A stretch of 64,000 nt of DNA from assembly GCA_963798465.1 (NCBI GenBank), contig CAWCTC010000001.1, positions 656,465-720,464 of the forward strand. Reading direction: 5' to 3'. Numbering within the stretch: the stretch's first letter is position 1; each line of letters opens with the position of its first letter. The notes under the pieces are model-generated. The model was not told the DNA's origin and made no database searches. It saw only the letters and a program-made list of their open reading frames with translations. Below are positions 9,688 to 27,531 of the stretch, piece after piece. The stretch comes from an uncultured bacterium (lineage in GTDB: Bacteria; Patescibacteriota; Minisyncoccia; Phycocordibacterales; GWA1-40-21). Position numbers and translations under genes: made by a program.

Positions 9688-12600
9688 ATGGCAAAATTTA
9701 CCCATTTACATACGCATTCTCACTACTCTCTTCTAAACGCACTGCCTCAATTGAAGGAGCTTGTTAAAATGACGAAAGAACTCGGGATGTCATCTCTTGC
9801 TCTTACCGATGCAGGCAATATGTACGGCGCGATTGAGTTTTATCAGACATGCAAAAAAAATGATATCAAGCCAATCCTCGGCGTAGATTTTTATGTCGCA
9901 GCAAGAACTCGCCACGACAAGCAAGGAGGAATAGACAATCGCAGAGCAAGACTCGTTCTTCTCGCAAAAAATAATGCCGGTTATAAAAATCTCATCAAGC
10001 TCGTCACAGATTCATAACTTCGAAGGATTTTATTACAAGCCGAGAATCGACCGCGAACTTATGGAAAAATATTCCGACGGGCTCATCTGCATCATGCCGC
10101 ATTTTTCCGGAGAAATTTCTTATGCATTGAAAAATGGCGACACAGAAAAAGCAAAAGAAATTGTTGAATTGGTATAAAAAAGTTTATGGCGCGGAAAATT
10201 TCTTTTTGGAAATCACGCATCATCCGGAAATCGAAGGACAGATGGAGCTCAAAGAAAAAATAATAAAATTTGCAAAAGAAACAAAGACACCGACTTGTCG
10301 CCGCTCATGATGTTTATTATCTGAAACCTGAAGACAAAGCTGCACGCGACACTCTTGTCCAAGTAAATTCTCATTCCGATTTTTCAGACAGGGCAGATAG
10401 CGGAAGCACAGATGATTTTTCTCTTATTTCTCCGGAAAAAGCTGAAGAATATTTCAAAGACACTCCCGAAGCATTGGAAAATACTCAGAAAATTGCCGAG
10501 GCTGTGCAACATTGAAATAACGTTTCGGCCAAGCCGCTTGGAAATTTCCAAATTACATCGTTGAAAATGGAAATTCTTACGACGAAGAATTGCGAAGGCT
10601 TTCATACGAAGGATTGGAAAAAAGAGGATTGCCACATTCAAAAGAAGTTATAGACAGGCTCGAATATGAATTGAAAGTCATTCAAGATAAAGGCTATGCG
10701 CAATACTTTCTTGTCGTTTACCGATCTTCTCAAATTTTCAGAAGAAAATGAATATTTATACGAACATCAGAGGTTCCGTCGCAGGCTCTCTCGTCACTTA
10801 TGTCACAGGAATTACAAAAGTAAATCCGATTGAATACAAGCTTCCGTTTGAAAGATTTTTGAATCCTGAAAGGCCTTCCGCTCCCGATATCGATATGGAC
10901 TATGCCGACAACAGGCGCGATGAAGTCATCAATTATGCCAGAGAAAAATATGGAAAAGAAAATGTCGCGCAGATCGGAACTTTCGGAACAATGATGGCTC
11001 GCGGAGCTTGCAGAGATGTTGCGCGCGCAATGGGTTATCCTCTCGTTCTTGCAGACAAGATTGCAAAACTCGTGCCGATGGGTTCGCAAGGTTTTCCGAT
11101 GACGATCAAAAAAGCTCTGGCGGAAGTTGCTGAATTGAAAGAAATGTATAAAAATGACAAAGACACGAAAGCAATTATAGACATGGCGAAAAAAATAGAA
11201 GGTTGTGCACGACACATTTCCGTTCACGCAGCCGGAGTCGTCATTGCGCCTACTCCGCTCACAGATTACACTCCGCTTCAATATGATCCAAAAGGCGAAG
11301 GGAAAATCATCACTCAATATGATATGCACGCAGTCGGCGAAGATGGTGTCGGACTTTTGAAATTTGATTTTCTCGGAATTAAAAATCTTTCCATCCTTGC
11401 CGATGCGGTAAAACGCGTGAAAAAAATAGAAAATATAGATTTGGACATTGAAGAAATTCCGCTCGATGACAAACTCACTTTTGATCTTGCTCTCACGAGG
11501 AGAAACGACCGGGCTTTTCCAATTGAACGGCTCCGGCATGACAAAATATTTGAAAGATTTGAAACCGACGACTATCCACGATATCAACGCGATGGTCGCA
11601 CTTTACCGTCCAGGTCCGATTGAACTCATTCCGGAATATATCGAAAGAAAACACAATCAGAAAAAAATAAAATATTTCGATCCGAGAATGAAAGAATATC
11701 TCGATCTTTCTTACGGGCTTATCGTGTATCAAGATGACGTCATGCTGACGGCTATCAAGCTTGCCGGATATTCCTGGCTTGAAGCGGACAAACTCAGAAA
11801 AGCCATGGGAAAGAAAATCCCAGCGGAAATGGCAGGCGCAGAAAGATAAAATTCTGAAAGGTTTTATCGAACATGGACTGACAGATAAAAAAGCAGATAC
11901 GCTTTGGAAACTCATCGAGCCTTTCGCAGCTTACGGTTTCAATAAAGCTCACGCAGCAAGCTATGGAAGAGTTGCATATCAGACCGCTTACATGAAAGCA
12001 AACTTCCCTGCAATCTATATGTCCGCAGTTCTTACAGCAGACTCTGGCGATGTGGAAAAAATCGGCGAGTTCATCGCAGACTGTAGAAAAATGGGAATTC
12101 CTGTTTTGCCTCCAAGCGTAAACGAAAGCTTCAGCGACTTCACCGTTGTAAAAACTCCCGGAGCAGATGTTCATTCAGTCGGTGAAGATCGCGACAAGAT
12201 TCGCTTCGGACTTACAACAATAAAAAACTTCGGCGAAGAAATTTCAAAAGTTATAATTGAAGAAAGAAAGAAAAATGGAAAATTCACTTCCCTTTCAAAC
12301 TTCTTGGAAAGAATCATCGACCGAAATCTGACAAAAAGATCGCTTGAACCTCTCATAAAAACCGGCGCACTCGACGAATTCGGCGAAAGAGGCCAGATGC
12401 TTGCAAATGCTGAAAATCTTTTAAAATATAATAAAGAGATCGGCAAAAAAGATCAAAATCAAGATTCTCTTTTTGGAATGTTCGACGGCCCATCCGAAGA
12501 TGGAAAAACAAAAGAAGCTTTCACTCTCCTACCAGCACCGGAAGCCACGATGAAAGAAAAACTTTCCTGGGAAAAAGAATTGCTCGGACTTTATATTTCC

Positions 12601-12945
12601 GGACATCCGCTTGATAAATATAAAAGCATTTTGGAAAAACAAAAAATTACAATAAAAAGAATCAAAGGAGATACAGAAAATGTAAAAAGCATCGTTGACG
12701 GCGGACAGCCAATCGGCGGAATCATCGAAGAAGTCCGCGAAATAACGACCAAAAATAACGAGCTTATGGCTTTCATAAAAATTGCAGATTTGACCGGCTC
12801 AATCGACGCAGTAGTTTTTCCAAGGACTTATGCCGAAATGAAAAATGCAATCACGCCGGACAGATGTGTTGCAGTCATTGGAAAAGTTTCTGAAAGAAAT
12901 GGAGAAATAAGTTTGATTATAGATAAACTTAAAATTTTGGAATAA
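9688..12945 (+). pseudogene. dnaE: DNA polymerase III alpha subunit, about 9 frame changes between ~10,000 and ~11,850
   Basis: The PHP domain ('FTHLHTHSHYSLL'), 'EGFYYKPRID', 'RGSVAGSLVTYVTGIT', 'PDIDMDYA', 'GLLKFDFLGIKNL', 'ALYRPGP' and 'YGFNKAHAASYG' are collinear but spread over three frames. The last 1.1 kb is intact. Confidence 0.85.
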
Positions 12946-13071
12946 AGACTCGCTCGAATTCGCCTTTTAAAAACGCACATAAAAATCTGTTGATTTTTTG
13001 TTATGCTCGGCTCGACAGCCTGCGCAATGTTTTTAAAATGTGAATCCTCGCTCGTTGGTGAAAATACAAAA

Positions 13072-13539
13072 TCATTTGTCAACAAATCCTCCAATATATT
13101 TGGTTTCAAATACGCAAATATCATCTTTAAAAATCTTTTCTTCTCCTGAAAAATTATCAACGTCTCCAATAAGATTATTCGTATATTTAAAATTACCTTT
13201 TTCATACAATTTTGGTCCGCGGTATGGCATCTCAATAGTTGCGTTAGATAAAGATTCAACCAAAAAAGGGTAAATTTCTTTTACTTCTACATTTTTATGA
13301 ACAAATCCGTAATAAACCATCATCCAAATTGGTTTATTTTTTAAAAATAAAACTTCTCTGCCACCATAAGGTTCACCACCAAAATAGTTGTCGTGATATT
13401 TGTAATCACCATCTTCAAAAACTATTGTAGTAGAACCATCGGTCTGTTTTTGTTGAATAGATTTATCACCGGAAGCATAAGTCGCTCGGCTAGCTTTAAA
13501 AATAAATTCCTTGAGTTGTTCTTTGTCTAAATTATTCAC
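13072..13539 (-). CDS. Hypothetical protein, DUF5680-like (GTG start)
   Basis: 'ATYASG..DGS..FEDGDYKYHDNYFGGEPYGGREVLF..KPIWMMVYYG' resembles the DUF5680 pattern, recalled from memory rather than searched. Confidence 0.45.
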   Translation of the reverse strand: MNNLDKEQLKEFIFKASRATYASGDKSIQQKQTDGSTTIVFEDGDYKYHDNYFGGEPYGGREVLFLKNKPIWMMVYYGFVHKNVEVKEIYPFLVESLSNATIEMPYRGPKLYEKGNFKYTNNLIGDVDNFSGEEKIFKDDICVFETKYIGGFVDK

Positions 13540-13564
13540 GGCAATATTGTATCATATAATCAAT

Positions 13565-13593
13565 TTGACATCACAAACTCAATTGACTATTAT
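13565..13593 (+). promoter_or_regulatory. Sigma70-type promoter (TTGACA-17 nt-TATTAT) for the thrS leader
   Basis: Hexamers and spacing were read directly from the sequence. Confidence 0.55.
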
Positions 13594-13599
13594 AGACAT

Positions 13600-13730
13600 G
13601 TAGAGATTGGTGGCTACTAACCACATAAAAGCAATTTCTAGGTAAAGAGTTAAAAGCCGGGTGGAACCGCGAGTAGAATCGCCCCGACAAAACACGAGTA
13701 ATCGTTTTTTGTCGGGGCGATTTTGATTTT
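13600..13730 (+). promoter_or_regulatory. T-box riboswitch leader (Thr specifier ACU) with intrinsic terminator
   Basis: 'AGAGA' lies at the Stem I base and a hairpin loop 'CUACUAA' carries ACU. The T-box sequence is 'GCCGGGUGGAACCGCGAG', followed by the terminator 'AUCGCCCCGACAAAA...UUUUGUCGGGGCGAU' plus a U-run, all directly upstream of thrS. Confidence 0.8.
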
Positions 13731-13832
13731 TGAGCTACAAAAATCATGTCGAAAGAATTTTTTAAATACGAAGTATTTTAAAAATTTTTTGACTATTTTT
13801 TAAGAAAAATTTATTAGAATAATTATATAAAA

Positions 13833-15575
13833 ATGGAAAACGAAAAATTACACAGAATGAGACATTCACTTGCACACCTTCTCGGTGCTGCAGTCAAAGA
13901 ATTATATCCGGATGCAAAAATTGCTACAGGACCAGCAATTGAAAATGGTTTTTATTATGACTTTGATTTTTCCGCTCCAATCACAGATAAAGACCTCGGA
14001 AAGATTGAACAGAAAATGAGAGAACTCGTAAAAAAGATTAAATCTTTTGATAAAGCTGAAATTTCTAAAAAGGACGCAGAAAAACTTTTTGCCGGAAATC
14101 CTTACAAACTTGAGCTCATTGAAGAATATTCAAAAGAAGGAAAAACTCTCACAACTTACACTTCGGGAGATTTTACAGACCTTTGTGCCGGACCTCATGT
14201 TGAGTCTATGGATGAAATAAAAAATGTCGCATGGAAGCTTGAAAGAGTTGCCGGGGCTTACTGGAAAGGCAATGAAGATAACAAAATGCTCACAAGAATT
14301 TATGGTTTGGCTTTTGAAACAAAAGATGAACTTGATGCATATTTAAAAAGAATTGAGGAAGCAAAAGCCCGTGATCACAAAAAACTTGGAAAAGAGCTTG
14401 GGCTTTTTGTATTTTCAGATCTTGTTGGTCCAGGACTTCCACTTTACACATTCAAGGGCGCAATTGTCAGACGAGAAATTATAAATTACTCAAATGAATT
14501 GCAAAAAACAATCGGTTATCAAGAAGTTCATACTCCAAATATAAACAAGGGTGAATTATTCAAAGTTTCAGGTCATTATGAAAAATATCTTGGAAGTATG
14601 TTAAAGGTTTTTTCAAATTTTTCAAAAGAAGAATATTTCTTGAAACCTATGAATTGCCCACAGCACACGCAGATTTATGCTTCTGAAGGAAGAAGTTACA
14701 GAGATTTACCTATCAGAATTGCTGATTTTGCAAACCTTTACAGAGATGAAAAACCTGGAGAATTGAATGGACTTACAAGATTGAAGTGTTTTTGCCAAGA
14801 TGACGGTCACGCTTTCTGCAGAGAAGACCAGATAAAAGATGAATTCGTAAATGTTTTGGAAATAATCAAAAAAGCTCTTGCAACTTATAAAATGGAATAC
14901 ACCATCCGTCTTTCGCTTTGGGATCCAGCAAAACCGGAAAAATATTTGGGCGGAGCGGAAGTTTGGGACAAATCACAAAAAATACTTGAAGATATTCTTA
15001 TAGAAAATAAAATTGAATATGTAAAAGCTGTCGGCGAGGCTGCCATCTATGGACCAAAAATGGATATAGTTACAAAAGATTCTCTTGGAAGAGAATGGCA
15101 GATTTCTACGATACAACTAGACCTTATAATGCCTGAGAGATTTAAACTTACATACACAGATAAAGATGGGCAACAAAAAACTCCTATGATGATTCATAGA
15201 GCTATTATCGGAAGCCCGGAAAGATTTATGGGAATACTTATTGAACATTATTCTGGAAACTTCCCCCTTTGGCTCGCTCCAGTTCAAGTAAAAATAATTC
15301 CAATCAGAGAAAATCATAACGAGCACGCGGAAAAAATTGCAAAAGAATTAAAAACTCTAGATTTCAGAGTTGATTGCGATACAAAAGAAGGAAACATGGG
15401 AGGAAAAGTCCGTGATGCAAAAAATATGAAAATTCCTTACACAATAATTATCGGCGACAAAGATATCGAAGCAAAAAAGATTTCTGTCGAATCTCGCGAC
15501 AAAGGCCAGCTCGGACAAATGGATTTGAAAGATTTTATTGAAAAAATTGAGAAGGAAAGAAAAAATAGAGAGTAA
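13833..15575 (+). CDS. thrS: Threonine--tRNA ligase (no N-terminal TGS domain)
   Basis: Starts in the second additional/editing-type region ('HRMRHSLAHLLGAAV'). Class II core motifs are present ('FLKPMNCPQH', 'YRDE..G.L.GL.RL', 'HRAIIGSPERF'), as is an anticodon-binding C-terminus. Confidence 0.92.
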   Translation: MENEKLHRMRHSLAHLLGAAVKELYPDAKIATGPAIENGFYYDFDFSAPITDKDLGKIEQKMRELVKKIKSFDKAEISKKDAEKLFAGNPYKLELIEEYSKEGKTLTTYTSGDFTDLCAGPHVESMDEIKNVAWKLERVAGAYWKGNEDNKMLTRIYGLAFETKDELDAYLKRIEEAKARDHKKLGKELGLFVFSDLVGPGLPLYTFKGAIVRREIINYSNELQKTIGYQEVHTPNINKGELFKVSGHYEKYLGSMLKVFSNFSKEEYFLKPMNCPQHTQIYASEGRSYRDLPIRIADFANLYRDEKPGELNGLTRLKCFCQDDGHAFCREDQIKDEFVNVLEIIKKALATYKMEYTIRLSLWDPAKPEKYLGGAEVWDKSQKILEDILIENKIEYVKAVGEAAIYGPKMDIVTKDSLGREWQISTIQLDLIMPERFKLTYTDKDGQQKTPMMIHRAIIGSPERFMGILIEHYSGNFPLWLAPVQVKIIPIRENHNEHAEKIAKELKTLDFRVDCDTKEGNMGGKVRDAKNMKIPYTIIIGDKDIEAKKISVESRDKGQLGQMDLKDFIEKIEKERKNRE

Positions 15576-15580
15576 TTATT

Positions 15581-15616
15581 AAAAAAACCGCGCTGTAAAA
15601 GCGCGGTTTTTTTTTT
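15581..15616. terminator. Bidirectional terminator (ACCGCGC-TGTAAAA-GCGCGGT) between thrS and the 154-aa gene
   Basis: A/T runs flank both sides of the stem. Confidence 0.7.
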
Positions 15617-16079
15617 AAAATAAATCAAAGTGAAAAATACTTCTGAACTTGTCTTTTATTAATGTTTGATTAAATGCGGCATGAATCTCATCCATATCAG
15701 TGACCCTCATGAAATCACATTCCTCGTGCAAGCCTCTGATTTCCTCCCGCATAGAATACGGATTTTTTATCATCAGACATAGTGCAACAATTAATCCTTT
15801 TTCATATCCTCTCAAAATCCAGCCAACCAAATAATGAACATAGCCAATAATCCAAAATATAATTTCACGGATCATGTCAAATATCATTTGGTTAACGCTA
15901 GCTACAAAACCTGCCAAGAGCAAAAGGATAATTAATATAATGAGAAGAAAGTCTGGATAATTTTTAAAAAGGCTTAAAACCTCTGGCTCCGAGATAAGAA
16001 CAATTTCTGCAAATACAACAGAGACAAAAACTGCCAAACGAAAAATTATTTCAACAACCATATCAAAGAATTCACTCAT
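15615..16079 (-). CDS. Hypothetical multi-pass membrane protein (start moved to MSEFFDM; strong SD)
   Basis: The internal ATG at 16079 is preceded by 'TTGGGGGTGGAaaATG'. Several hydrophobic helices are present. Confidence 0.55.
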   Translation of the reverse strand: MSEFFDMVVEIIFRLAVFVSVVFAEIVLISEPEVLSLFKNYPDFLLIILIILLLLAGFVASVNQMIFDMIREIIFWIIGYVHYLVGWILRGYEKGLIVALCLMIKNPYSMREEIRGLHEECDFMRVTDMDEIHAAFNQTLIKDKFRSIFHFDLF

Positions 16080-16188
16080 TTTCCACCCCCAATTTTTTAT
16101 TTTAAAAGCAACAAATCTAATCACAATGCTAGCATGAAAAAATAAAAAACAAAACCGCCTTTTTATGGACGGTTTTTGTTTAAAACAT

Positions 16189-16443
16189 TTAGAAATGGCT
16201 GTAGTTTGTTTTTAGATACCGCAAATAATCTTTTTTATAGATTAAAACCAGTATTATCTGCAATATCACAAAAAAAATTAACCATAAAGCCGCCGCTATC
16301 AGCAATATGATTGCCAATATAAACGGGGTCGTTTCTATGTGTAAAATTAACACACAAAAGGCAAGAAAGACGACTGAAATAATAAAACTGATAACTTTAA
16401 TCCACTCATTCAACGCCTCGAATTTCAAAAAAAGTTTGAACAT
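16189..16443 (-). CDS. Hypothetical small membrane protein (84 aa; strong SD)
   Basis: 'AAGGGAGGTGAtatatccATG' precedes the ORF, which has two or three TM helices. Confidence 0.55.
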   Translation of the reverse strand: MFKLFLKFEALNEWIKVISFIISVVFLAFCVLILHIETTPFILAIILLIAAALWLIFFVILQIILVLIYKKDYLRYLKTNYSHF

Positions 16444-16510
16444 GGATATATCACCTCCCTTTTTTTATAATGAACGATTTTTAAATATGTTAGCACAAAA
16501 AGGCAAAATT

Positions 16511-16541
16511 AAAAGGGCGGCCGCTTCGCGGCCGCCCTTTT
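16511..16541. terminator. GC-rich NotI-containing hairpin (GGGCGGCCGC-TTC-GCGGCCGCCC)
   Basis: Perfect palindromic arms flanked by AAAA/TTTT. Confidence 0.65.
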
Positions 16542-16560
16542 AATTTTGCTTTTATCGTAG

Positions 16561-16648
16561 ATCGATTCGCGAAAGTGTAATCACTTAAGTGAAGCGAGTC
16601 GTGCATAGTAGTCCGCGGAGGCGGACACTTATAACGAAAAGAAAACCT
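16561..16648 (-). repeat. Family-4 ~85-nt repeat, copy 1
   Basis: 'ATCGATTCGCGAA..GAAGCGAGTCGTG..GTCCGCGGAGGCGGACACTT..CG.AAAGAAAACCT' is shared with 45190-45272. Confidence 0.7.
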
Positions 16649-16690
16649 GGCATTTTAAAAGCCGTCTTGAAACGGCTTTTAAAATTTTTC

Positions 16691-17824
16691 TTAAATATAC
16701 TTTTCCAAATCATTTTCCCCCACAGCTGTCCAATCCGTTCCAGACATTTTTTTGATAGTTTCCGAAGCATTAATTTTGCCGAGTTTTGAAAGCTTAAATA
16801 TTTTTATGGAAGCATCTGAAGAAAGCAAAACTTTATTCAATCTCGCATAATCTTCAATCTGCTTCAATTCATTTCCTTCATTTGAAATCTTTGTTTTAAC
16901 TTTTTCAGAATTTGCCGAGATACTAGAAACATTTTCAGTGGCAAGAACTTCCGAAGCCGATTTGTTTTTCAAAAACATATAAGCCAGCATCGCGCTCCAA
17001 AGCAATAAAATTGAAATGAATAATATAGAACTTGTAACATCATCAAATCCGGTATAAGGAACTGAGCTCAAATATACGGATGAAAGATTTGTGTTCGTAT
17101 CATTGTAAGAAAGAACCTGATTATTTGTCGTTGGTGTCGTGTAAGTCGGAGTATAAGTTGTCGAAGTATTTGCAACTGTGCTTGGAATTATATCGACTGA
17201 ACAAGTTCTTGTGACACTTTGTCCGTTTGAAGTAATCACCAAATTCATATATTCCAAACCAGTGTACTGATAATATTGAGAAACATATTGTCCAGAGTAC
17301 GAATTATTGTAACTGTCTGTCCAATAATAATTGTAAGCTCCATTTCCTCCAGAAGCTGAAGCGGACCAGTTGATTGTATTTCCAGCATTCGCACTAGAGA
17401 CAGTTGCAGTGCATGAACCATCAAGAGCTGCGTAAGTCGGATAAGAATAATATGGATAATAATAACTTTGTGTCGGATAAACATTAACATTTCCGCAATT
17501 TGCCGTTACCGATTGTCCATTTGATGTTACTGTAACATTTGCCGTTTTTGTTCCTGCTGAAATATAATTTTGCGAAACATAGCTTGAATATCCAAAAAGT
17601 CCGTCTGTTCCTGACCATGAATAAGAATAAGCTCCGTTTCCGCCGGACACTGAAGCAGACCATCCTATTGAATTATCGGTTTGAATTGAATATGAATTCG
17701 GCTGGCAAGAAACTTGCAAAGCTGGATAATAATATTGCGCGTTTGATACAGCCGGAATAATAAAGCCAGCCAGCAAAACAATTGCGACAGCTGAATATTT
17801 AGTTATTTTTTTCATGTTTTTCAT
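16691..17824 (-). CDS. Secreted repeat-domain surface protein with VPYTG sortase-like signal, TM helix and ~95-aa tail
   Basis: Has a signal peptide and two Cys-bracketed ~80-aa repeats ('W.AS.SGGNGAY.Y.W...ITSNGQSVT..C'). These are followed by 'LSSVPYTGF', a hydrophobic helix and 'KNK'. Confidence 0.7.
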   Translation of the reverse strand: MKNMKKITKYSAVAIVLLAGFIIPAVSNAQYYYPALQVSCQPNSYSIQTDNSIGWSASVSGGNGAYSYSWSGTDGLFGYSSYVSQNYISAGTKTANVTVTSNGQSVTANCGNVNVYPTQSYYYPYYSYPTYAALDGSCTATVSSANAGNTINWSASASGGNGAYNYYWTDSYNNSYSGQYVSQYYQYTGLEYMNLVITSNGQSVTRTCSVDIIPSTVANTSTTYTPTYTTPTTNNQVLSYNDTNTNLSSVYLSSVPYTGFDDVTSSILFISILLLWSAMLAYMFLKNKSASEVLATENVSSISANSEKVKTKISNEGNELKQIEDYARLNKVLLSSDASIKIFKLSKLGKINASETIKKMSGTDWTAVGENDLEKYI

Positions 17825-17879
17825 ATCTTTGTATTACATCTAAAACTATAAAAAGTCAATGATACCATTTTCACAAAAT

Positions 17880-18530
17880 TTAATTCACAGTACTCGTAGC
17901 GGTAATTGGACTTTGAGAAACAAATTCAGACTGGACGACAAATCTGTCTTCTTTTGTCGCGAAGTTATCACAAGTGGAAAGAGTCAGCATTTTCGTCTTG
18001 GTATCAAACACAACTAAAGCTTGATCCGCGGTTGTCATGGTTACAGACAAAACTTTATAAGTGTAAACATTATCGCTTGAATAAAGATATATCAAATCTC
18101 CTTCTTTCAAAGTATTCAGTCCATTGAAAGTTTTGAAAGCTTGATTATTTACAATTTTAATTCTGGTATTATGCCCGAAAATATAAATATTTCCATTTCC
18201 TCCGGGAAGTCCTGACCCTGGATATCTTACAGCTCCACTCAAAAGATAATTATCAAGTGCATCTATACTCGTAGTTGCAGGATTGTAGACTTGAGCATTG
18301 ACCCCAATAGCGGGAATCTGAATGCTCATAGGAAGTTCTCCGACTTCATTACCTTTTGATTCCTGAATAGGAGCTCTGCCTATGAAAGACTTGAATTCCT
18401 CGGGAACCAAGCCAAAAAGATACAAAATCGAAAACGTAATCGTAAGAATAATAAAAAGATTCAAGAAGAAATATCCCTTGTTTTGCCAAATTAAGCTTAT
18501 TATTCCTTGTTTTTTTTGTTGTTTATCCAT
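17880..18530 (-). CDS. Sortase-family transpeptidase
   Basis: N-terminal TM anchor, with His motif 'IYIFGHNT', Cys motif 'LTLSTCDN' and a downstream Arg ('EDRFVV'). Confidence 0.8.
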   Translation of the reverse strand: MDKQQKKQGIISLIWQNKGYFFLNLFIILTITFSILYLFGLVPEEFKSFIGRAPIQESKGNEVGELPMSIQIPAIGVNAQVYNPATTSIDALDNYLLSGAVRYPGSGLPGGNGNIYIFGHNTRIKIVNNQAFKTFNGLNTLKEGDLIYLYSSDNVYTYKVLSVTMTTADQALVVFDTKTKMLTLSTCDNFATKEDRFVVQSEFVSQSPITATSTVN

Positions 18531-18571
18531 AATGCGTGTTTTGGTTTGTTTAATGACTCAATTATACTTGC

Positions 18572-18600
18572 TTGACAATAAAAGTCAAGTAGTGTATAGT
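18572..18600 (+). promoter_or_regulatory. Sigma70-type promoter (TTGACA-17 nt-TATAGT) for the CARDB gene; -35 sits in a CTTGAC/GTCAAG inverted repeat
   Basis: Read directly from the sequence. Confidence 0.55.
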
Positions 18601-18638
18601 ATTGTTTCATTAATTTAATCAATAAAAAAACAAATTTT

Positions 18639-19679
18639 ATGAATAAAGACGTTACAACAAAAGAAATAACACCGGTAGTAGTAAAGAAAACATTCTGGGA
18701 AAAAACCAAGGAATCTTTTCATGTTGCTTTGATATCGGCAGGAATCATTCTTGCAATTTTACTTTTGGTCTGGGTTCCATTCAAACTCATTCCATCAATC
18801 TACAGCCATGGTTCAAACTTCGTATCTACTTCCCTTTCATCTTTGTTTATTCCTAGTGAATCAACTTCGACTCAGCAAACTGCTCCAGAAAATGCTCTCA
18901 TAACTACAGCAACAACCAGCCAAACTACAAATGCGTCAGCTACAAAAACATCTTCTGCTCAAGTTCAGCAAGTCGCATATTATGGCGAACCAGATTTGGC
19001 GATAACTCTTATAGGAACAGGTATCATAGATCCAGCTTCAAAACAATTTATCCAGACAAATTATGCCGGTATGAACGATGAAGTTGCGATGAAATTCCAA
19101 GTAAAAAATATCGGAACAAATGTTTCCGGAGCTTGGCAGCTTAGAATAAATTCGCCCTCAAGAACGACACCTTATTATGATTCTCCTTATCAGCAATCAA
19201 TAAAACCGGGAGACAGCATGATATTCACAGCAAGTTTTGACAGTCCTATAACTACAGGCATCAACACTGCTTACGTAACTGTTGATCCTTTGAACATGAT
19301 TGCCGAATCTTCAAAAGCAAATAATCAACTCATAATTCCTATAGATATAAGCGGGACAAACTATGCTTATGCAAATGAAAATAATTATGGAAGTGTCACC
19401 ACGAATACTCCAGGAACTTTATACACTTGGACAAATATGAGCGTAAATTGCTTTGCAAATCCACAAACATCATATGTTGGAAGTCCGATAACTTGGTACG
19501 CAACAGTATCAGGAGGAAACGGATACTACACTTATTCATGGGCAGGATCAGATTTATTGAGTGCAAGCGAAAGTTACACGACAAAAACTTACTACTCAGC
19601 CGGAACAAAAGCTGCCGTAGTAACAGTCACATCAAATGGACAATCTGTGACAGCACAATGTATGGCGAATATTAATTAA
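18639..19679 (+). CDS. Membrane-anchored surface protein with CARDB-like domain and one SGGNG-Y-Y-W repeat
   Basis: The CARDB-like stretch is 'PDLAITLIG..VKNIGTNVSGAWQLRI...VTVDPLNMIAESSKANNQ'. The C-terminal repeat matches those of the 377-aa protein. Confidence 0.7.
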   Translation: MNKDVTTKEITPVVVKKTFWEKTKESFHVALISAGIILAILLLVWVPFKLIPSIYSHGSNFVSTSLSSLFIPSESTSTQQTAPENALITTATTSQTTNASATKTSSAQVQQVAYYGEPDLAITLIGTGIIDPASKQFIQTNYAGMNDEVAMKFQVKNIGTNVSGAWQLRINSPSRTTPYYDSPYQQSIKPGDSMIFTASFDSPITTGINTAYVTVDPLNMIAESSKANNQLIIPIDISGTNYAYANENNYGSVTTNTPGTLYTWTNMSVNCFANPQTSYVGSPITWYATVSGGNGYYTYSWAGSDLLSASESYTTKTYYSAGTKAAVVTVTSNGQSVTAQCMANIN

Positions 19680-19697
19680 TTTTAAAAAAATAAAAAT

Positions 19698-19731
19698 AAA
19701 AGGGCGGCCGCGAAAGCGGCCGCCCTTTTTT
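19698..19731. terminator. GC-rich NotI-containing bidirectional terminator (GGGCGGCCGC-GAAA-GCGGCCGCCC)
   Basis: Lies between the convergent CARDB gene and gyrB. Confidence 0.7.
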
Positions 19732-19773
19732 GATTCTGTGGAATCACATCGCACGAGTCCTTATGGTGCGATG
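19731..19773 (-). repeat. Two-hairpin 'AAGGAC-loop' element, copy 1 (downstream of gyrB)
   Basis: Minus strand reads 'CATCGCAC-cauAAGGACuc-GUGCGAUG' followed by 'UGAUUC-CACA-GAAUCA'. Confidence 0.65.
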
Positions 19774-19780
19774 CACTTTT

Positions 19781-21869
19781 TTAAATATCAATATTCGCCA
19801 ATTTTGCATTTGACTGTATGAAAGCTTTTCTCGCAGGAACATCGGTACCCATGAGCATATCGAATGTTTTATCCGCTTCTTGTGCATCAATTACAGTAAC
19901 TCTTTTCATCATTCTTCTTGCCGGATCCAAAGTTGTTTCCCAAAGTTCGTCTGCATTCATTTCTCCAAGACCTTTATATCTTTGAACTGAAACTTTCGGA
20001 CCTTTTTTGGTTTCAATTTCTTCATCCTCAACAATTTCTTCTGATGTCGATTCAACTTCGGCAACTTCGCTATCGGCAATTTTTTCTTTTTTAAAAAAGG
20101 CTTCTTTTTCTTCCTCTGTATAAAAATAATGAACTTCTTTTCCTATTTTAACTTTATACAATGGCGGCTGCGCAATACAAATATGTCCACCATCTATGAG
20201 CGGTCTAAAATATCTGTAGAACAAAGTTAGAAGAAGCGTTGTAATGTGCGCTCCATCAACGTCAGCATCGGTGGCAATAATTATTTTATGATATCTTAAT
20301 TTTTCAATATCAAATGTATCTCCTATCGCGGTGCCGAGCGCTACGACAATATTTTTTATCATTTCTGATTCAAGCATTTTATCAAGTCTTGCTCTTTCAA
20401 TGTTCAAAATTTTTCCTCGAAGCGGAAGTATCGCTTGAATTTTTCTATCGCGTCCCATCTTTGCCGTACCGCCTGCAGAATCTCCCTCCACAATTATTAT
20501 TTCTGATTCTGATGCATCCTTGCTTTGACAATCTGCAAGCTTACCGGGAAGCGTCATTCCTTCAAGTGCACCTTTTCTGAGTATTGAATCCTTCGCGGCC
20601 TTAGCTGCTTTTCTCGCTTTAAGAGCTAAAATTACCTTAGAAACTATTGCTCTTGCATCATCTGGGTTCTCTTCAAGAAAGGCTCCGAAAGCCTCGCCAA
20701 AGACCTCTTCAACTGCGCCACGAGCCTCGACAGAACCAAGCTTTGCTTTCGTCTGACCTTCAAATTGAATTTCGCGGAGCTTCACAGAAATGACAGCAGT
20801 CAAACCTTCAAGTACATCATCTCCGGTAAAATTTTCCTCACTTTCTTTTGTCAGATTATTTTTTCTTGCATAATTATTCAGCGATCTCGTGAGAGAGGTT
20901 TTGAAACCTGTGACATGAGTTCCGCCTTCAGGAGTTTCAATATCGTTTGCAAATGCCATAATCCTCGAAGAAATATCATCAACATATTGCAATGCTATTT
21001 CTACAGATTCAACTCCTGCAGCTTTTTTCTCAACATAAAAAACATTTTTATGAATTGGTTTTTGAAATTGATTGTAAAATTTAACAAGAGATAAAAGTCC
21101 GCCTTCAAAATAAAAAGATTGCGATGGCGCTTCTATATCCAAGTTCTGAAAAATAAAATACTTCTTTATCGTCGATTTTTTCTGTAATTTCTCTTGCATC
21201 CATTGCAGTGATTCTCAAACCTTTTACAAGATAAGCTTGTTGTCTCATGTGAGAAACCACGCTGTTGAAATCAAAAACAATTCCCTCTTTGAAAATTTCA
21301 GGATCCGGCTCAAAAGTAACTATCGTTCCATGTTTGTCTGTCTTTCCGATTTTTTTTACAGAAGCTTTTGGTTTTCCTTTTGCATATTCTTGAATGTAAA
21401 TCGCGCCATCTTTATGAACGACAACTTTCATGTAAGTTGAAAGAGCGTTCACTACTGAAGCTCCGACTCCGTGAAGTCCTCCGGAAACTTTATATTCTGT
21501 TCCTTCACCTCCAAATTTTCCTCCAGCATGAAGGACGGTCATAATGGTTTCGAGTGCTGAAACTTTTGTTTGTTTGTGAATATCTACAGGAATACCTCTT
21601 CCGTTATCTGTAACTCTTACTCTGTTTCCAGGCAATAAAACAATCTCGATGTGATTGCAATAACCGTTCATCGCTTCATCGCGAGAATTGTCAAAAATCT
21701 CTGTTATAAGGTGATGCAAACCATCTGGACCTGTTGTTCCAATATACATACCTGGACGCCTTCTGACGGGCTCCAGCCCCTCAAGGACCTGGATGGCACT
21801 GGCATCATAATGATGTTCACTCTTTGCTTCTTTTTTGGGTTTTTCTTGCCCGTTCAAATTTTTTGCCAT
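19781..21869 (-). pseudogene. gyrB: DNA gyrase subunit B with a single +1 insertion in a T-run (~21,150)
   Basis: The N-terminal GHKL ATPase ('LEGLEPVRRRPGMYIG', 'DNGRGIPV') and the Toprim/C-terminal part ('EIIIVEGDSAGG', 'IIATDADVDGAHI') lie in two frames. The junction 'TTT TAT TTTT CAG' restores '..KEVFYFQNLDIEAPSQSFYFEGG'. Confidence 0.88.
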
Positions 21870-22143
21870 AATTATATATGTTTATAATATTTACTTTTAC
21901 TTGTTATAATAAGCCTTTATGTACAGCCCTATTTCTTCAAAAAACTTGTTCGGGTGAAGCATAATTTAAAAACAGCTTATAGCTTTTTATACCTTGTATT
22001 ATAACAAATAATCGGCGTAAAAGAAACAGAAAATTGGGTTTTTATAAAATAAATTCCTAAAATATTAAATAAAAAGCTATTTACATATTATTTTTATTGT
22101 GTTAATCTAGCAATAGAAAAACAAATCTGAAAGGAGGTATTAC

Positions 22144-22320
22144 ATGGACAAAATAGATATAGAGATAAAAGAACTTGTAAGAAATTATCTATCTTCTACA
22201 GAAACACCGACCCAGAACGATAAGCACATAAGAGAATCAGCAATAAAGTTAAACAAACCTGTTTCTCTAATGAGGGGTAAGTTCAACGACAAATTGGATG
22301 AAATGAATCCCTTCAGGTAA
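22144..22320 (+). CDS. Small hypothetical protein (58 aa), strong SD
   Basis: 'AAAGGAGGTattacATG' precedes MDKIDIEIKELVRNYLSSTETPTQNDKHIRESAIKLNKPVSLMRGKFNDKLDEMNPFR. The ORF falls below the ORF-track size cutoff. Confidence 0.5.
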   Translation: MDKIDIEIKELVRNYLSSTETPTQNDKHIRESAIKLNKPVSLMRGKFNDKLDEMNPFR

Positions 22321-22366
22321 TTACAGATTTTTGCCTCGATGTACATTTTAAAAAATAGGAGGATTA

Positions 22367-22543
22367 ATGGAAACATTGACAAAAACTTTGGCTGAAAGAC
22401 GCGTAAATGATCTAATGAAAAATATTGCCGGCAAAAATATAAATTCAAGGGCAATCGAAAAAGCCGCCAAAAAAATTGCTGGAGAGACAAAAACAAATCT
22501 CGAAAAAGTAAGAACGATGATATCCGAAAAAAACAACAAATAA
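22367..22543 (+). CDS. Small hypothetical protein (58 aa), strong SD
   Basis: 'ATAGGAGGAttaATG' precedes METLTKTLAERRVNDLMKNIAGKNINSRAIEKAAKKIAGETKTNLEKVRTMISEKNNK. A terminator follows. Confidence 0.5.
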   Translation: METLTKTLAERRVNDLMKNIAGKNINSRAIEKAAKKIAGETKTNLEKVRTMISEKNNK

Positions 22544-22560
22544 GAAACTAATCGGATATA

Positions 22561-22589
22561 AAGAGCTAGGTCAAACCTAGCTCTTTTTT
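22561..22589. terminator. Bidirectional terminator (AAGAGCTAGG-TCAAA-CCTAGCTCTT + T-run)
   Basis: 10-bp perfect stem between the convergent small-ORF pair and the 190-aa gene. Confidence 0.7.
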
Positions 22590-23160
22590 ATTTCTCCGTA
22601 AAAATTACCAATCTTTTCCAGCCGAGTTTAAATTTATCTATTTCTACAAAAAGATTCTCGCCTCCATTTTCTTCCGGCATTTCCGGATCATGATAATAAA
22701 ATCCGTTTATTTTTCCTTTATCATCTTTTTCATAGCCGACAATCACAATTCCGTGATGCCTGTCTTTCTCAGTAAAATATTTGTAGATTGAAACAATCGA
22801 TGGCATTCCTTCGTCTATTTTTTCTGCAATTTTTCCTATTCCCTTTTCCAAAAATAAATCTGACATCGGGCCGGCTTTCATTTCTCCATTTTTTATATCC
22901 ACATCAACAGATTTAAATTCTTGAGCATACGCGGAAATCCCGTGGTTTCTAAAAAGCCTTATGACTTCGTTGTGTTTCCAGAATTTGCCATCCCAGGCGC
23001 CGACAGAAGTTCCCTCTTTTATCCAATCGTCAGCTGGAATATTTTTTTCTCCCAAAAATTCAGCCACCATTTTTATACAAACAACAAGACAAGAGTGAGC
23101 TTTCCATTCAGGATCTATCACATCTGTGCGCTGAGAATAATATGGTACTTTTAATTTCAT
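22588..23160 (-). CDS. Papain-like cysteine peptidase, C39-like (Peptidase_C39_2-type)
   Basis: 'VPYYSQR', the candidate Cys in 'AHSCLVV' and the candidate His in 'RHHGIVIVGY' follow the order seen in C39-like domains. Confidence 0.5.
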   Translation of the reverse strand: MKLKVPYYSQRTDVIDPEWKAHSCLVVCIKMVAEFLGEKNIPADDWIKEGTSVGAWDGKFWKHNEVIRLFRNHGISAYAQEFKSVDVDIKNGEMKAGPMSDLFLEKGIGKIAEKIDEGMPSIVSIYKYFTEKDRHHGIVIVGYEKDDKGKINGFYYHDPEMPEENGGENLFVEIDKFKLGWKRLVIFTEK

Positions 23161-23268
23161 CCCGTAAAGAAATTTTAATATTTTGATAATTTCGACTTCT
23201 TGATAAATTGATTCTATACTTTTTTAGAAAAATTTTAATACTGAGCTGAATTTCACACGGGACAAGTA
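23161..23268 (-). repeat. Family-2 intergenic element, copy 1 (fills pheT stop to next ATG)
   Basis: The left block 'CCGTAAAGAAATTTTAATATTTTGATAATTTCGAC' and right block 'ACGGGACAAGTA' are shared with 61805-61914. The minus-strand ends CCCGU...ACGGG can pair, and ACGGG directly abuts the ATG. Confidence 0.65.
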
Positions 23269-23271
23269 TAA

Positions 23272-25632
23272 TTATCTTACTTGCCAATCTTTTTTTGCAT
23301 TCATCTTATCGGTAATTTTCTGCATAATTGCATTTACTTCATCATCAGAAAGAGTTTTTTCATATGACTGAAAAATTATTCTGTATGCGTAAGAAGTTTT
23401 TTTAGTTCCGTCTTCCAAAGTTTTTGTGAAGACATCGAACAATCTGTTTTTCAACATAAGTTCTCCAGCATTTTTATTTATTATTTCCAAAACTTCATCG
23501 GCTTTCGTTCCTTCCGGAGTAAATACAGCAATATCGCGAATCATGAACGGAAATGGTGAAATCTTTTTAAATTTTAAGTCTCTACCATCTTCTTTTGGAA
23601 AATCATATTCTAAAACATCGGGTAAATTCTTAATCATATCTGAAATTAAAAATTCAGCGATATTTTCATCATTATTTATCTTCTCTAGTTTTAAGTTTAG
23701 TGTTTCAGAAAGCTTCTTCAAAGTTGCATCAAGCACATCTTTTTCTTTTGGTTTTTTAACTCCTGCTGGATTTTGTACTCCAATGACAAAATTTTCAGTT
23801 TCTCCATTAAAACTAAATACATGGCCAAATTCAAATATTTTTATTTGAGGCATATCAATAAGTTCAGAATATCTAGCATTTAGATCTAAAGAATCCTTGA
23901 TACCAGAAGAAAGATTAGTTCTCAAATATTTTTTCTCTGGAGATAAAGGTTTTAATAATTCAATATCACCCTTCTTTACAAAAGAGTAATTCATTACTTC
24001 AGAAAAACCTTCTTCATACAAAAAATTTCTTATTTTTTGCTTATAAGCAAAAACTTTATTTGTTTTTGGTTTTTTTATTGAATCAGGAATATCAATATAT
24101 TTTATTTTATCGTAACCATATATCCTTCCTATCTCTTCCGCGAGATCTTCCTTGATTCTCAAATCCAATCTTTCATCAGGAACAGTAATGACAAATCTTT
24201 CTTCATTGTCAGACATTCTTCTGTATCCGACGATATTTTTGAATCTTTCTGATATTTTTAAATCTTCTATAACTACTTTTCCTGTAAGAGATGTTGCATG
24301 AGTAACTTTTCCATCTCCTAAATATAATCCGCAATGATCTACCCCCTCTAGAACTTTAGTGCCAGGTAAAAATTCAATTGTTTCTGTGTATATCTTTCCA
24401 TCTTTTGTATTTGAAAATATAACATCTCCAGCCTTCAAATCTTTTTCTTCTATTTTTTCTCCAAACACATATTGATCAACTGACATTCTTGGAATCTGAA
24501 TTCCCGCTTGAGCAAAAAGGTTGCTGACAAAACCTGAGCAATCAAAAGCTTTCGGCGCATCGTAAGTTATGCTTGCTCCACGTTTATATGGAACTCCAAC
24601 AAAAGTTGGTGCGAGTTTCAAAACCTCATCAATCGGTCTGACTTTCTTCCATTCAAAATTAAATCTGTCAAAAATCTTTTCAATATCAGAATCTTTTATT
24701 GGAACGCCGATTATTGAGCTTGCTTCGGCTGAAGAAATGCCGAGCTTGAATTTATTTGCTCTTTTTGGATAATTATCTACAACATCTCCAACTTTTGTAT
24801 CTTTTGTTCCGGCAATTTCAACAATTAATTTTGTGAGAATATCCATCGCTTCCCCGCAAAGCTCAGGCGTCAAATCATTTTCATATCTTTTTGAAGCATC
24901 TGTTTGAATTTTAATTTTTTGTGCGGTTTTTCTTATGTTTACCGGGCTAAAATTCGCCGACTCCAAAATAATATTTTTTGTATTGAGATCGAGCTCAGCA
25001 AAATCTCCGCCTTTTATGCCGGCAATTGCAAGCGGATTTTTTCCGTCCGTAATAAGCAGGACGCTTTCATCAAGCTCGACTTCTTTTTTATCAAGAGTTG
25101 TTATTTTTTGGCCTTTCCCGGCATTTTTAACGACAATTTCATTGCCGATTTTATCAGAATCAAAAGCGTGCATCGGCTGGCCGATTTCAAGCATGACAAA
25201 ATTTGTCGCATCAACAATATTATTTATCGATCTCTGTCCGAGTATTTCCAGCTTTTCCGCTAGCCATTTTGGCGAAGGACCAACTTTGATATTTTCAACG
25301 ACTCTTCCGATATATCTTCTGCACAGTTTTTCATCATCAATTTTTACTTCAAGATTTTTTGAAGTTTTTGAAATATTAAAATCTTTAAATTTTCTAGAAT
25401 ATTTTTCTATTTTAATATCAGCAATAGTTCCGAGTTCTCTTGCAATTCCTCTGTGACATAAGCAACTATGATTTAAGTTTGGCGTAGCTTTTGTATCTAT
25501 GACAACATCACCATTCATTTTTTCAGTTCCTTCAACTTCCATCGAATGCATTTCCAAAAGCTCCACCGTTTTTTCAACTTTCGGTGCTTTGCCATTAAAA
25601 TATTCATTTAACCATTTATAAGAAACTTTCAT
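23272..25632 (-). CDS. pheT: Phenylalanine--tRNA ligase beta subunit carrying an internal NlpC/P60 insertion
   Basis: B1, B3_4 ('NNIVDATNFVMLEIGQPMHAFD'), B5 ('FVITVPDERLDLRIKEDLAEEIGRIYGYDKI'), core and C-terminal FDX-ACB-like segments are all present and intact. No OB-fold B2 domain was seen. Confidence 0.9.
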   Translation of the reverse strand: MKVSYKWLNEYFNGKAPKVEKTVELLEMHSMEVEGTEKMNGDVVIDTKATPNLNHSCLCHRGIARELGTIADIKIEKYSRKFKDFNISKTSKNLEVKIDDEKLCRRYIGRVVENIKVGPSPKWLAEKLEILGQRSINNIVDATNFVMLEIGQPMHAFDSDKIGNEIVVKNAGKGQKITTLDKKEVELDESVLLITDGKNPLAIAGIKGGDFAELDLNTKNIILESANFSPVNIRKTAQKIKIQTDASKRYENDLTPELCGEAMDILTKLIVEIAGTKDTKVGDVVDNYPKRANKFKLGISSAEASSIIGVPIKDSDIEKIFDRFNFEWKKVRPIDEVLKLAPTFVGVPYKRGASITYDAPKAFDCSGFVSNLFAQAGIQIPRMSVDQYVFGEKIEEKDLKAGDVIFSNTKDGKIYTETIEFLPGTKVLEGVDHCGLYLGDGKVTHATSLTGKVVIEDLKISERFKNIVGYRRMSDNEERFVITVPDERLDLRIKEDLAEEIGRIYGYDKIKYIDIPDSIKKPKTNKVFAYKQKIRNFLYEEGFSEVMNYSFVKKGDIELLKPLSPEKKYLRTNLSSGIKDSLDLNARYSELIDMPQIKIFEFGHVFSFNGETENFVIGVQNPAGVKKPKEKDVLDATLKKLSETLNLKLEKINNDENIAEFLISDMIKNLPDVLEYDFPKEDGRDLKFKKISPFPFMIRDIAVFTPEGTKADEVLEIINKNAGELMLKNRLFDVFTKTLEDGTKKTSYAYRIIFQSYEKTLSDDEVNAIMQKITDKMNAKKDWQVR
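24199..24642 (-). other. NlpC/P60 (C40 peptidase-like) module embedded in PheT (aa ~331-478)
   Basis: 'VGVPYKRGAS....FDCSGFVSNLF...DHCGLYLGDGKVTHAT' shows the canonical NlpC/P60 order with Cys, His and His present. Confidence 0.75.
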
Positions 25633-25694
25633 TGTTTTTATTTTTTGTATTTATTCGTAGCCATTCGTAACATTCGCATAATATTCGTATCTTA

Positions 25695-26453
25695 TTAAAA
25701 TTGATTTACTAATCTCAAGTCTCCAGAATATAAAAGTCGGATATCATCTATTTCATATTTAAGCATTGCAAGTCTGTCTACTCCAAAACCAAAAGCAAAA
25801 CCTCTCCAATCATTAGAATTTATTCCTACACTATTTAAAACTTTTGGGTGCACCATTCCTGCACCACCGAGCTCAAGCCATCCAGAACCTCCGCAAAGCT
25901 GACACTTACCTTCTCCTTTGCATTTAAAACAAGTGACGTCAACTTCAACACCTGGTTCAACAAAAGGAAAATAACTAGGTCTAAATCTAACATTTACATC
26001 CTTCTTTAAAAATTTATCAAAAAAAGTATTTATTGTAGATTTTAAATCAGCTAAGGAAACATTCTTATCTACAAGAAGTCCTTCACACTGGTGAAATAAC
26101 GCTTCGTGTCTTGCATCTGTAGCTTCATTTCTAAAAACTCTTCCTGGACAAATTATTTTGAAAGGAGGTTTATTATTTTCCATATAACGAATCTGCATGG
26201 CACTAGTTTGGGTGGTCATAAGTCTATCTTCTTTTTCTCCAAAATTTTTACTTGATTTAATCCAAAAAGTATCCTGCATATCGCGCGCAGGGTGATCCTT
26301 AGGAACATTTAGTGCATCAAAATTGTGGTATTCGTCTTCTAGCTCAGGACCATCTACTAGAGTAAATCCCATCTCAAAAAAGATTCTGTTCATGTCGTCT
26401 ATAACACGAGTGAGCGGATGAATATGTATATTTTTTTGATTTGTATCTTGCAT
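25695..26453 (-). CDS. pheS: Phenylalanine--tRNA ligase alpha subunit (short form, no N-terminal coiled coil)
   Basis: Carries the class II motifs 'HPARDMQDTF', 'PGRVFRNE', 'FRPSYFPFVEPGVEVDV' and 'GAGMVHPKVL..GFAFGFGVDRLAML'. Confidence 0.92.
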   Translation of the reverse strand: MQDTNQKNIHIHPLTRVIDDMNRIFFEMGFTLVDGPELEDEYHNFDALNVPKDHPARDMQDTFWIKSSKNFGEKEDRLMTTQTSAMQIRYMENNKPPFKIICPGRVFRNEATDARHEALFHQCEGLLVDKNVSLADLKSTINTFFDKFLKKDVNVRFRPSYFPFVEPGVEVDVTCFKCKGEGKCQLCGGSGWLELGGAGMVHPKVLNSVGINSNDWRGFAFGFGVDRLAMLKYEIDDIRLLYSGDLRLVNQF

Positions 26454-26457
26454 ATGT

Positions 26458-26596
26458 TTACCCGAGAAAATTTTTGCTGATAAAAATGTTATTGCTAATA
26501 TTTTGATAAATTATATTTTATTACTATTTCTGCCCTGATAGATACAGTATCTTTTTTGCATTTTCAATAACATCAGCAAAAACTTTAACGGGTTAA
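26458..26596 (-). repeat. Family-1 intergenic hairpin element, copy C (4 nt from pheS ATG)
   Basis: The ends are 'TTACCCGAGAAAATTTTTGCTGATAAAAATGTTATTG' and 'CAATAACATCAGCAAAAACTTTAACGGGTTAA'. Confidence 0.75.
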
Positions 26597-26617
26597 TTAT
26601 ACAGAAAATACGAAGTT

Positions 26618-27514: not shown

Positions 27515-27531
27515 GTAGTTTAAAATTGAAT

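Follow-up and report, generated by a model that had tools for sequence, protein, structure and literature searches.

A candidate sortase substrate with a conserved, predicted cytoplasmic tail domain in a probable three-gene cassette of Paceibacteria

C-terminal tripartite sorting signals such as LPXTG, PEP-CTERM, and PGF-CTERM are defined by their position at the very end of a protein, and the remainder left after processing is treated as waste. Some sortases are encoded side by side with a single target, as in the SrtB-IsdC pair or in the pairing of a marine proteobacterial sortase with its sole target, and these targets also end shortly after the transmembrane (TM) helix. Here, we analyzed a sortase locus of the Patescibacteria, a group of abundant bacteria, most of them without cultured members, that are thought to live attached to host organisms. 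The locus lies in a stretch of 64,000 nucleotides (nt) from an uncultured bacterium (GenBank assembly GCA_963798465.1, contig CAWCTC010000001.1, positions 656,465 to 720,464; hereafter the window), where the sortase open reading frame (ORF) is placed between the gene of a secreted protein of 377 amino acids (aa) and that of a membrane-anchored CARDB protein of 346 aa. We consider it likely that these genes constitute a conserved three-gene surface-display cassette of Paceibacteria, in which the CARDB protein and a dedicated sortase are joined by one dedicated substrate, the 377-aa protein, which we infer to be cut between T and G of its sorting signal while its cytoplasmic tail is retained. 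In the literature, we found nothing on [VIL]PYTG signals, on dedicated sortase substrates of the Candidate Phyla Radiation (CPR), or on cytoplasmic tails.

The candidate substrate gene (16691..17824, minus strand; 377 aa; orthologues in the related loci L002, L003, L004, L005, and L021) and the sortase gene (17880..18530, minus strand; 216 aa, with an N-terminal TM anchor) share one strand, and the CARDB gene (18639..19679, plus strand; 346 aa) is divergently transcribed from the sortase. An earlier note on this DNA, made from its letters alone, had described a sortase with catalytic His, Cys, and Arg between two such proteins, and both parts of that description hold: the three ORFs are in place, and the sortase matches Pfam PF04203 (86 bits against a cut-off of 26.6, residues 70-202), with H120 (FGHNT), C187 (LTLSTC), and R196 invariant in 26 sortase homologues. 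Read from its sequence, the candidate substrate begins with a signal peptide (residues 1-29, MKNMKK...AVSNA|QYYY; 17738..17824, minus strand) whose N-terminus is basic and whose hydrophobic core leads up to a cleavage-like SNA site. Beyond two cysteine-bracketed modules follow the extended sorting signal SVYLSSVPYTG (17048..17080, minus strand; VPYTG, residues 255-259, at 17048-17062) and a TM helix of the pattern F...LWSA..AY..FL (residues ~263-285) that ends in KNK (residues 286-288; helix and KNK at 16961..17038, minus strand). The protein continues with a poorly conserved linker (residues 289-314; 16883..16960, minus strand), predicted to be disordered with an AlphaFold2 predicted local distance difference test score (pLDDT) of 49-60, and with a tail domain, domain A (residues ~315-377; 16694..16882, minus strand), predicted to be a shortened AAA+ lid-like domain. 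The tail is thus as atypically long as the earlier note had it, with 89 residues after KNK, i.e., 118 after the G of VPYTG. Peptide forms of the candidate sorting signal are SVYLSSVPYTGFDD and SVYLSSVPYTGFDDV. VPYTG is the only motif of the [LIVMAP]PxT[GASN] type with a TM helix within the window, and no sorting signal was found in the 346-aa CARDB protein, and the combination of signal, TM helix, and KNK is confined to the 377-aa protein, as had been noticed before. The Pfam Gram_pos_anchor and NCBIfam LPXTG anchor models gave no match in the substrate at E<=1.

As in the canonical LPXTG systems, of which SrtA and protein A of Staphylococcus aureus are an example, the substrate combines a signal peptide with a P/T/G-containing pentapeptide, a TM helix, and basic residues, and the sortase is a membrane-anchored PF04203 transpeptidase with Cys, His, and Arg. 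Unlike in those systems, the first position of the motif is mostly V or I and the third mostly Y, a conserved VYLSx block precedes the motif, the TM helix has the conserved pattern LWSA..AY, and one dedicated substrate is encoded next to the sortase instead of many scattered ones. The signal is also not C-terminal but is followed, after the basic residues, by the 89 residues that include a domain predicted to be folded. With the SrtB-IsdC type of pair, the locus shares a single substrate next to the sortase and a variant motif other than LPXTG; what sets it apart is the cytoplasmic domain behind the TM helix, together with the CARDB protein as a third conserved partner.

The consensus of 191 unique signals, LSSVYLS[QD][VI]PYTGxxDxxKxxxFxxxLxxWSAxxAYxFLKRK, extends well beyond the pentapeptide. 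Among these signals, P and G are present in 100% and T in 96%, the first motif position is V (65%), I (27%), or L (6%), and the third is Y in 81%, with the remainder mostly A, N, S, or T and only rarely Q or R. A third position that varies between fixed P, T, and G is what one would expect if it corresponds to the X of LPXTG. The motif stands 3-6 residues ahead of the TM helix, in which W (69%), S (77%), and A (53%) recur at fixed positions, and K or R is conserved after the helix at the positions of KNK. Conserved TM patterns are found in both the sortase and the substrate, which suggests that recognition reaches into the membrane.

Related loci were obtained by scanning species-representative genomes with a sortase alignment; as sortase similarity was the sole basis for choosing the resulting 80 loci, they allow a motif-blind test of the linkage between [VIL]PxTG and the sortase. 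The taxa named among them are Patescibacteria, including Paceibacterota, Kaiserbacteria, Parcubacteria, and Nomurabacteria, and the pairing was counted per sortase locus, on contig stretches rather than complete genomes. A downstream ORF with [VIL]PxTG and a TM helix was present in 47 of the 80 loci (43 under a stricter filter), always on the strand of the sortase, and in 42 of the 55 loci with at least 3 kb of downstream sequence. In L019, L022, L031, and L032, the contig end truncates a downstream ORF that carries modules, the one of L031 ending with ...GVYLSQVPYTGFNSNPRVNLFVLA. Looked up in reverse, the tail-family proteins P0004 and P0190 both adjoin a sortase. Within the 1.03 million six-frame residues of the 80 loci, [VIL]PYTG occurs 41 times, 39 of them before a hydrophobic stretch, against 0-6 occurrences for permuted-motif controls, and the classical LPxTG occurs 11 times, once before a hydrophobic stretch. 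The TM-proximal enrichment of the motif, without which the earlier note would have seen its interpretation as undermined, is thus evident among these loci. The same note had also allowed that the motif might not be a sortase site at all, an alternative that is disfavoured by the linkage, the LPXTG-like variability of the motif positions, and relatives in which the signal has a canonical ending; these three observations instead favour its other suggestion, namely that the long tail is a cytoplasmic domain of what would be a cleaved sortase substrate.

A profile search with the signal, TM helix, and tail retrieved 314 proteins at E<1e-3, compared to five matches from a word-index homology search with the tail. 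Many of the 314 matched through the signal region alone, and these are otherwise unrelated proteins in which the signal stands at the very C-terminal end, while at E<1e-30 the whole tail is present in about 60 full-length representative clusters. Several tail classes can be distinguished by the number of residues after the motif: canonical endings of 32-42 residues (about 10 loci), endings of about 50 residues that close with AFKEANxxK, tails of 106-133 residues with domain A (the class of the window), tails of 241-283 residues in which a linker with NVEPIYE repeats leads to a second domain, domain B (the Kaiserbacteria type), and tails of 309-324 residues with domains A and B together. Most adjacent substrates in the sortase-anchored loci have 100-324 residues after the motif. 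As the signal is also seen with the canonical 32-42-aa endings, function as a sorting signal is the simplest common denominator. Substrates of the Kaiserbacteria type (LSQIPYTGLDLGP...) have a short tandem NVEPIYE linker and then domain B alone (…AVFAGLRQ…LLDDAYRAR…TGAKLALTRAL..LGA); tails of this type were seen in L038, L039, L045, L047, L052, L055, L056, L061, L063, L065, L068, L072, L075, and L077.

In the profile searches, domains A and B were not found outside signal-bearing proteins, save for obvious fragments, so these searches give no sign of the independent family, unrelated to sortase loci, that the earlier note had named as a finding that would undermine its reading. A first hidden Markov model (HMM) of domain B also matched extracellular modules and CARDB proteins, probably through a contaminated seed, and only its strong C-terminal matches were used; a cleaner HMM of domains A and B matches substrates only. 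No other part of the substrate protein is as well conserved as the tail domain: identity to four orthologues is 61-84% in domain A, 54-75% in the signal and TM helix, 39-59% in the ectodomain, and 21-45% in the linker. One partial protein of the tail family (P0002), with IPSTG, a TM helix, and domain A, is filed at NCBI under 'Nanoarchaeota archaeon', and its contig is probably mis-binned.

A long tail behind a sorting signal might also arise as an artefact, through a frameshift, a read-through fusion, or a miscalled ORF, and this is suggested by at least one probable indel error in the window, in the gyrB gene, and by the many frameshifts of the related locus L001. Nevertheless, dozens of independent assemblies and species share the uninterrupted architecture, among them L003, which is near-identical, and L002, which is syntenic, and this cross-assembly conservation excludes an ORF fusion, an explanation to which we give practically no credence.

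The fold is best recognized in the tails with both domains. For one such A+B tail (P0227, alignment A5), AlphaFold2 gave a model with a pLDDT of 93, which Foldseek matched to the E. coli clamp-loader subunits gamma, delta, and delta', to B. subtilis delta, and to RFC (best E 2e-4, probability 1.00). Sequence identity is 10-17%, and the match spans ~190 columns, i.e., the whole query, which indicates that the model corresponds to domain II (the lid) and domain III (the collar) of the clamp loader, with the ATPase domain missing. The predicted A+B structure thus matches domains II and III of gamma and delta and superposes on those of clamp-loader subunits in general (DnaX gamma/tau, HolA delta, HolB delta', RFC). 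Unlike these subunits, the tails have no ATPase domain I and are fused behind the TM helix of a secreted protein, and the window has only the shortened lid. No P-loop ATPase domain I with Walker A and B motifs was found in the tail, which starts right after the TM helix and the disordered linker. Judging from the models, the tail domains would be either derived from clamp-loader domains II and III or convergent on them. The earlier note had not foreseen such a lineage-wide modular tail with an AAA+ lid- or clamp-loader-like fold.

The window-type tail is linked to these longer tails by profile comparison: hhalign aligned it to domain A of the A+B tails with a probability of 87.8% (E 3.3e-6), with a deletion of 10 residues in the region of the third helix. 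AlphaFold2, given a 52-sequence alignment of the window tail, predicted ~residues 315-377 with a pLDDT above 92 and the topology helix-strand-helix-helix-strand-helix. Direct profile matches were marginal, with E 0.065-0.08 to the RFC4 lid, E 0.17-0.55 to the RFC5 and RFC4 lids for a second tail alignment, and E 0.11 for domain B of a long tail to Pfam DNA_pol3_gamma3; apart from the latter, Pfam and NCBIfam gave only sub-threshold noise on the window tail and the long tails. A histone fold, suggested by an 'RVSxDA'-like pattern in domain A, was dropped since no histone-fold protein appeared in the Foldseek list.

Several topology cues place the tail domain in the cytoplasm: besides its signal peptide and only one TM helix, the substrate has acidic residues (GFDD) on the outer side of the helix and basic ones (KNK) on the inner side. 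A fold that is otherwise known from cytoplasmic machines suits this location.

Two results weigh against this interpretation of the protein and its tail. The first concerns the fold, as a Foldseek search of the PDB with domain A of the window alone gave no significant match (best E 0.9). The members of this non-significant list are almost all AAA+ lids, namely the N-terminal domains of DNA polymerase epsilon subunit B and PolD DP1, LonA, ClpC, and ClpX, as well as RuvB, RuvBL1/2, clamp-loader delta, and RFC4. We assign the window domain as a predicted shortened AAA+ lid-like domain from the make-up of this list and from the profile links to the A+B tails. The top two entries (2v6z, polymerase epsilon subunit B; 2kxe, PolD DP1), both at a non-significant E of ~1, are isolated N-terminal domains of ~70 residues, and the proteins and their cellular context are unrelated to the substrate tail. 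These two domains adopt a lid-like fold without an ATPase module and serve as interaction modules.

The second result concerns the linkage. About nine close relatives of the sortase keep the CARDB gene and the sortase with no adjacent substrate, and adjacency is therefore not universal. The relatives without a downstream substrate are L006, L007, L009, L010, L011, L013, L015, L016, and L017; in these loci, the substrate gene may have been lost or may be located in another part of the genome. Such relatives are also to be expected if the sortase acts on other proteins and the 377-aa protein is a permanent type-I membrane receptor or tether with VPYTG as an uncut, structural juxtamembrane motif. 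A tail that is conserved above all other parts and is always encoded together with the ectodomain would likewise be expected if the intact protein were the functional unit, and conservation of the signal well past the pentapeptide points the same way. Against an uncut receptor stand, however, the exact retention of P, T, and G around a variable third position, the placement of the motif 3-6 residues before a TM helix and basic residues, the canonical short endings behind the same motif in related loci, and its occurrence downstream of the sortase on the same strand in 42 of 55 loci. Moreover, the window offers no other candidate substrate, and the classical LPxTG is not TM-associated in the loci. 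We therefore regard an uncut type-I receptor as possible but less likely than a sortase substrate and, taken by itself, as improbable.

For the 377-aa protein as a sortase substrate, the following sequence of events can be proposed. The protein would be exported via its signal peptide, its disulfide-bracketed PKD-like modules would fold outside the cell, and translocation would halt at the conserved TM helix and basic residues. The sortase would then recognize the extended VYLSxVPYTG signal, a [VIL]PxTG variant of LPXTG, cut between T and G, and pass the ectodomain to an envelope acceptor, which may be peptidoglycan, by analogy with other sortases, or possibly the CARDB partner. The remnant in the membrane would consist of G and three more residues, the TM helix, the linker, and the folded and strongly conserved cytoplasmic domain. 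Before and/or after cleavage, this tail could act as a cytoplasmic docking or oligomerization module; it is also possible that it serves as a membrane-tethered cytoplasmic factor after cleavage, or as a handle by which the stub is extracted or turned over.

Sortase remnants with a function have a precedent in Streptococcus gordonii, in which, as summarised in PMC11326707, a C-peptide that remains after processing by sortase A is sensed by the two-component system SGO_1180. A sortase remnant left in the membrane would thus have a function of its own in both cases, there as reported and here as proposed; in contrast, the S. gordonii remnant is an ordinary short TM peptide sensed in the membrane, and the one proposed here would carry a cytoplasmic domain and has no linked kinase. 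This precedent, the stoichiometric stub that one substrate per sortase would yield, and a tail fold usually seen packed against AAA+ ATPase modules or in the collar of the clamp loader could all be taken to mean that cleavage is the first step of signalling or clearance, with the stub then freed by a site-2 protease or FtsH, or reporting anchoring to a cytoplasmic AAA+ or clamp-loader partner. No gene for a kinase, a site-2 protease, or an AAA+ partner is conserved in the cassette, however, the argument proceeds from fold analogy, and lineages with canonical short tails manage without a tail, which makes signalling or clearance a rather unlikely role for the cleavage. A more specific version, in which the ectodomain reaches the cell surface while the stub, with a clamp-loader-like lid, collar, or both, keeps a stoichiometric record of surface assembly and docks on, or competes with, the replicative clamp loader, the beta-clamp, or an AAA+ protein such as FtsH, is quite speculative, and we hold it to be improbable. 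If it were true, such docking would couple the status of the envelope or of host attachment to DNA replication or to the turnover of membrane proteins in minimal, episymbiont-like cells.

The logic of sortase and sorting signal in the proposed cassette is familiar, while the non-terminal signal, the modular clamp-loader-like cytoplasmic domains, and the three-gene arrangement in the core genome appear to be new. Contrary to the rule that such signals mark the end of a protein, a whole bacterial lineage retains modular, strongly conserved domains behind the signal, and predictors that demand a C-terminal signal will miss these substrates. The retained domains also raise the idea that a sortase remnant may be a functional cytoplasmic protein. 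A sortase is encoded in more than half of CPR genomes (PMC6744442), and with [VIL]PYTG in its extended context, CPR sortases gain a first candidate recognition motif. Given the abundance of Patescibacteria and their presumed attachment to hosts, a core-genome cassette between gyrB and thrS is a good entry to their envelope biology.

As to the class of the sortase, which the earlier note had left to be modelled, membership of the sortase family was supported by PF04203 and by the generic NCBIfam model TIGR01076 (48.6 bits against a cut-off of 39.35), the sole NCBIfam model above its cut-off, but every class cut-off was missed. Class E came closest (53.3 of 160 bits), followed by SrtD (49 of 140), class D (43.5 of 165), class C (38.2 of 160), class F (24 of 166), and SrtB (18.8 of 153.75). 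The enzyme thus shares the domain and catalytic triad of classes A-F, with class E as the best partial match. The best sequence match in the PDB was 2kw8 ('LPXTG-site transpeptidase family protein', E 1e-10), and the nearest entries, at E 1e-10 or weaker, are labelled as class A, class C, or unclassed sortase family. At E<=1e-5, 283 homologues were found in the protein collection; few of them have a source name, and those that do are Patescibacteria or Paceibacterota. By these sequence comparisons, the sortase appears to belong to a large, unclassified clade specific to Patescibacteria.

The third member of the proposed cassette, the 346-aa protein, carries, besides its N-terminal TM anchor (residues 27-48) and a juxtamembrane segment that is conserved, a linker rich in serine and threonine, a CARDB domain (PF07705; residues 140-231, 33 bits against a cut-off of 22.7), and the C-terminal module B1 (residues 271-341; 19449-19661, plus strand). 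In 67 related loci, a CARDB-family gene on the other strand lies upstream of the sortase, and in most of these the two genes directly abut. Module B1 has two counterparts in the substrate, A1 (residues 40-110; 17495..17707, minus strand) and A2 (residues 138-208; 17201..17413, minus strand). The cysteine-bracketed modules that had been described as shared by both proteins are therefore present in three copies, although their length is 71 aa from Cys to Cys rather than ~80 aa. Pairwise, the three modules are 41-56% identical as proteins (A2 is 46% identical to A1 and 41% to B1) and 50-62% identical as DNA on aligned codons, with best local DNA stretches of 75-76% over 59-76 nt and a longest exact common run of 17 nt. 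The near-identical DNA reported before was thus not found, and the alignment proposed as a check gave no sign of recent gene conversion, which we rejected in view of the 50-62% identity and the 17-nt run. PKD_4 (PF18911) matched the modules weakly and below its cut-off of 27 (17.4 bits for A1, E 0.0046, and 11.2 bits), and faint PKD_4 and SprB matches are on record for relatives. In the CARDB proteins of L004, L006, L011, L017, and L019, a segment '[VL]PYGT[LIY][YF][TS]W' precedes the C-terminal module. Its counterpart in the window is TPGTLYTW (within 18639-19679), and it resembles a scrambled sorting motif without a TM helix behind it; occurrences of [VIL]PYGT were accordingly rejected as sorting signals and assigned to this conserved segment of the CARDB proteins.

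The gene order Peptidase_C39_2/gyrB/CARDB (divergent)/sortase/substrate/thrS, which occupies 13833-23160 of the window (thrS at 13833-15575, Peptidase_C39_2 at 22588-23160), is kept in the 81%-identical L002 as well as in the distant L083. Near and far relatives within the Paceibacteria thus share this order, which puts the cassette into a core-genome setting; it is conserved across Paceibacteria and is often found between gyrB and thrS. In L003 ('Patescibacteria group bacterium isolate bog_1341'), the sortase is 99% identical to that of the window, which represents a related strain; in a BLAST comparison of window positions 9547-28514 with L003, the sortase cassette and thrS had 97.5% nucleotide identity, and the flanks were mostly 92-94% identical, with one block at 85% and one short block of 375 nt at 98%. 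The gyrB gene of the window (19781-21869, minus strand) is split into two overlapping ORFs of 254 and 472 aa, with one extra A near 21138 relative to L003. It is intact in L003 (a 695-aa ORF), as well as in L002 and L083, and the split is more likely to reflect an indel in the assembly than a true pseudogene. In L001 (ERZ25039473 contig_118918), a related cassette is interrupted by an insertion sequence element of the rve family and by many frameshifts, and thrS is fragmented, which looks like either a low-accuracy assembly or a decaying locus.

Two small ORFs with multiple TM helices are located 3' of the substrate gene on the same strand (15615-16124, minus strand, 169 aa; 16189-16443, minus strand, 84 aa) and may be part of the substrate operon; the 169-aa ORF has a homologue at the equivalent place in L002 (10681-11142). 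Elsewhere in L002 (899-3367), a product annotated as PheT, the beta subunit of phenylalanyl-tRNA synthetase, carries a precomputed NLPC_P60 Pfam match, an odd pairing.

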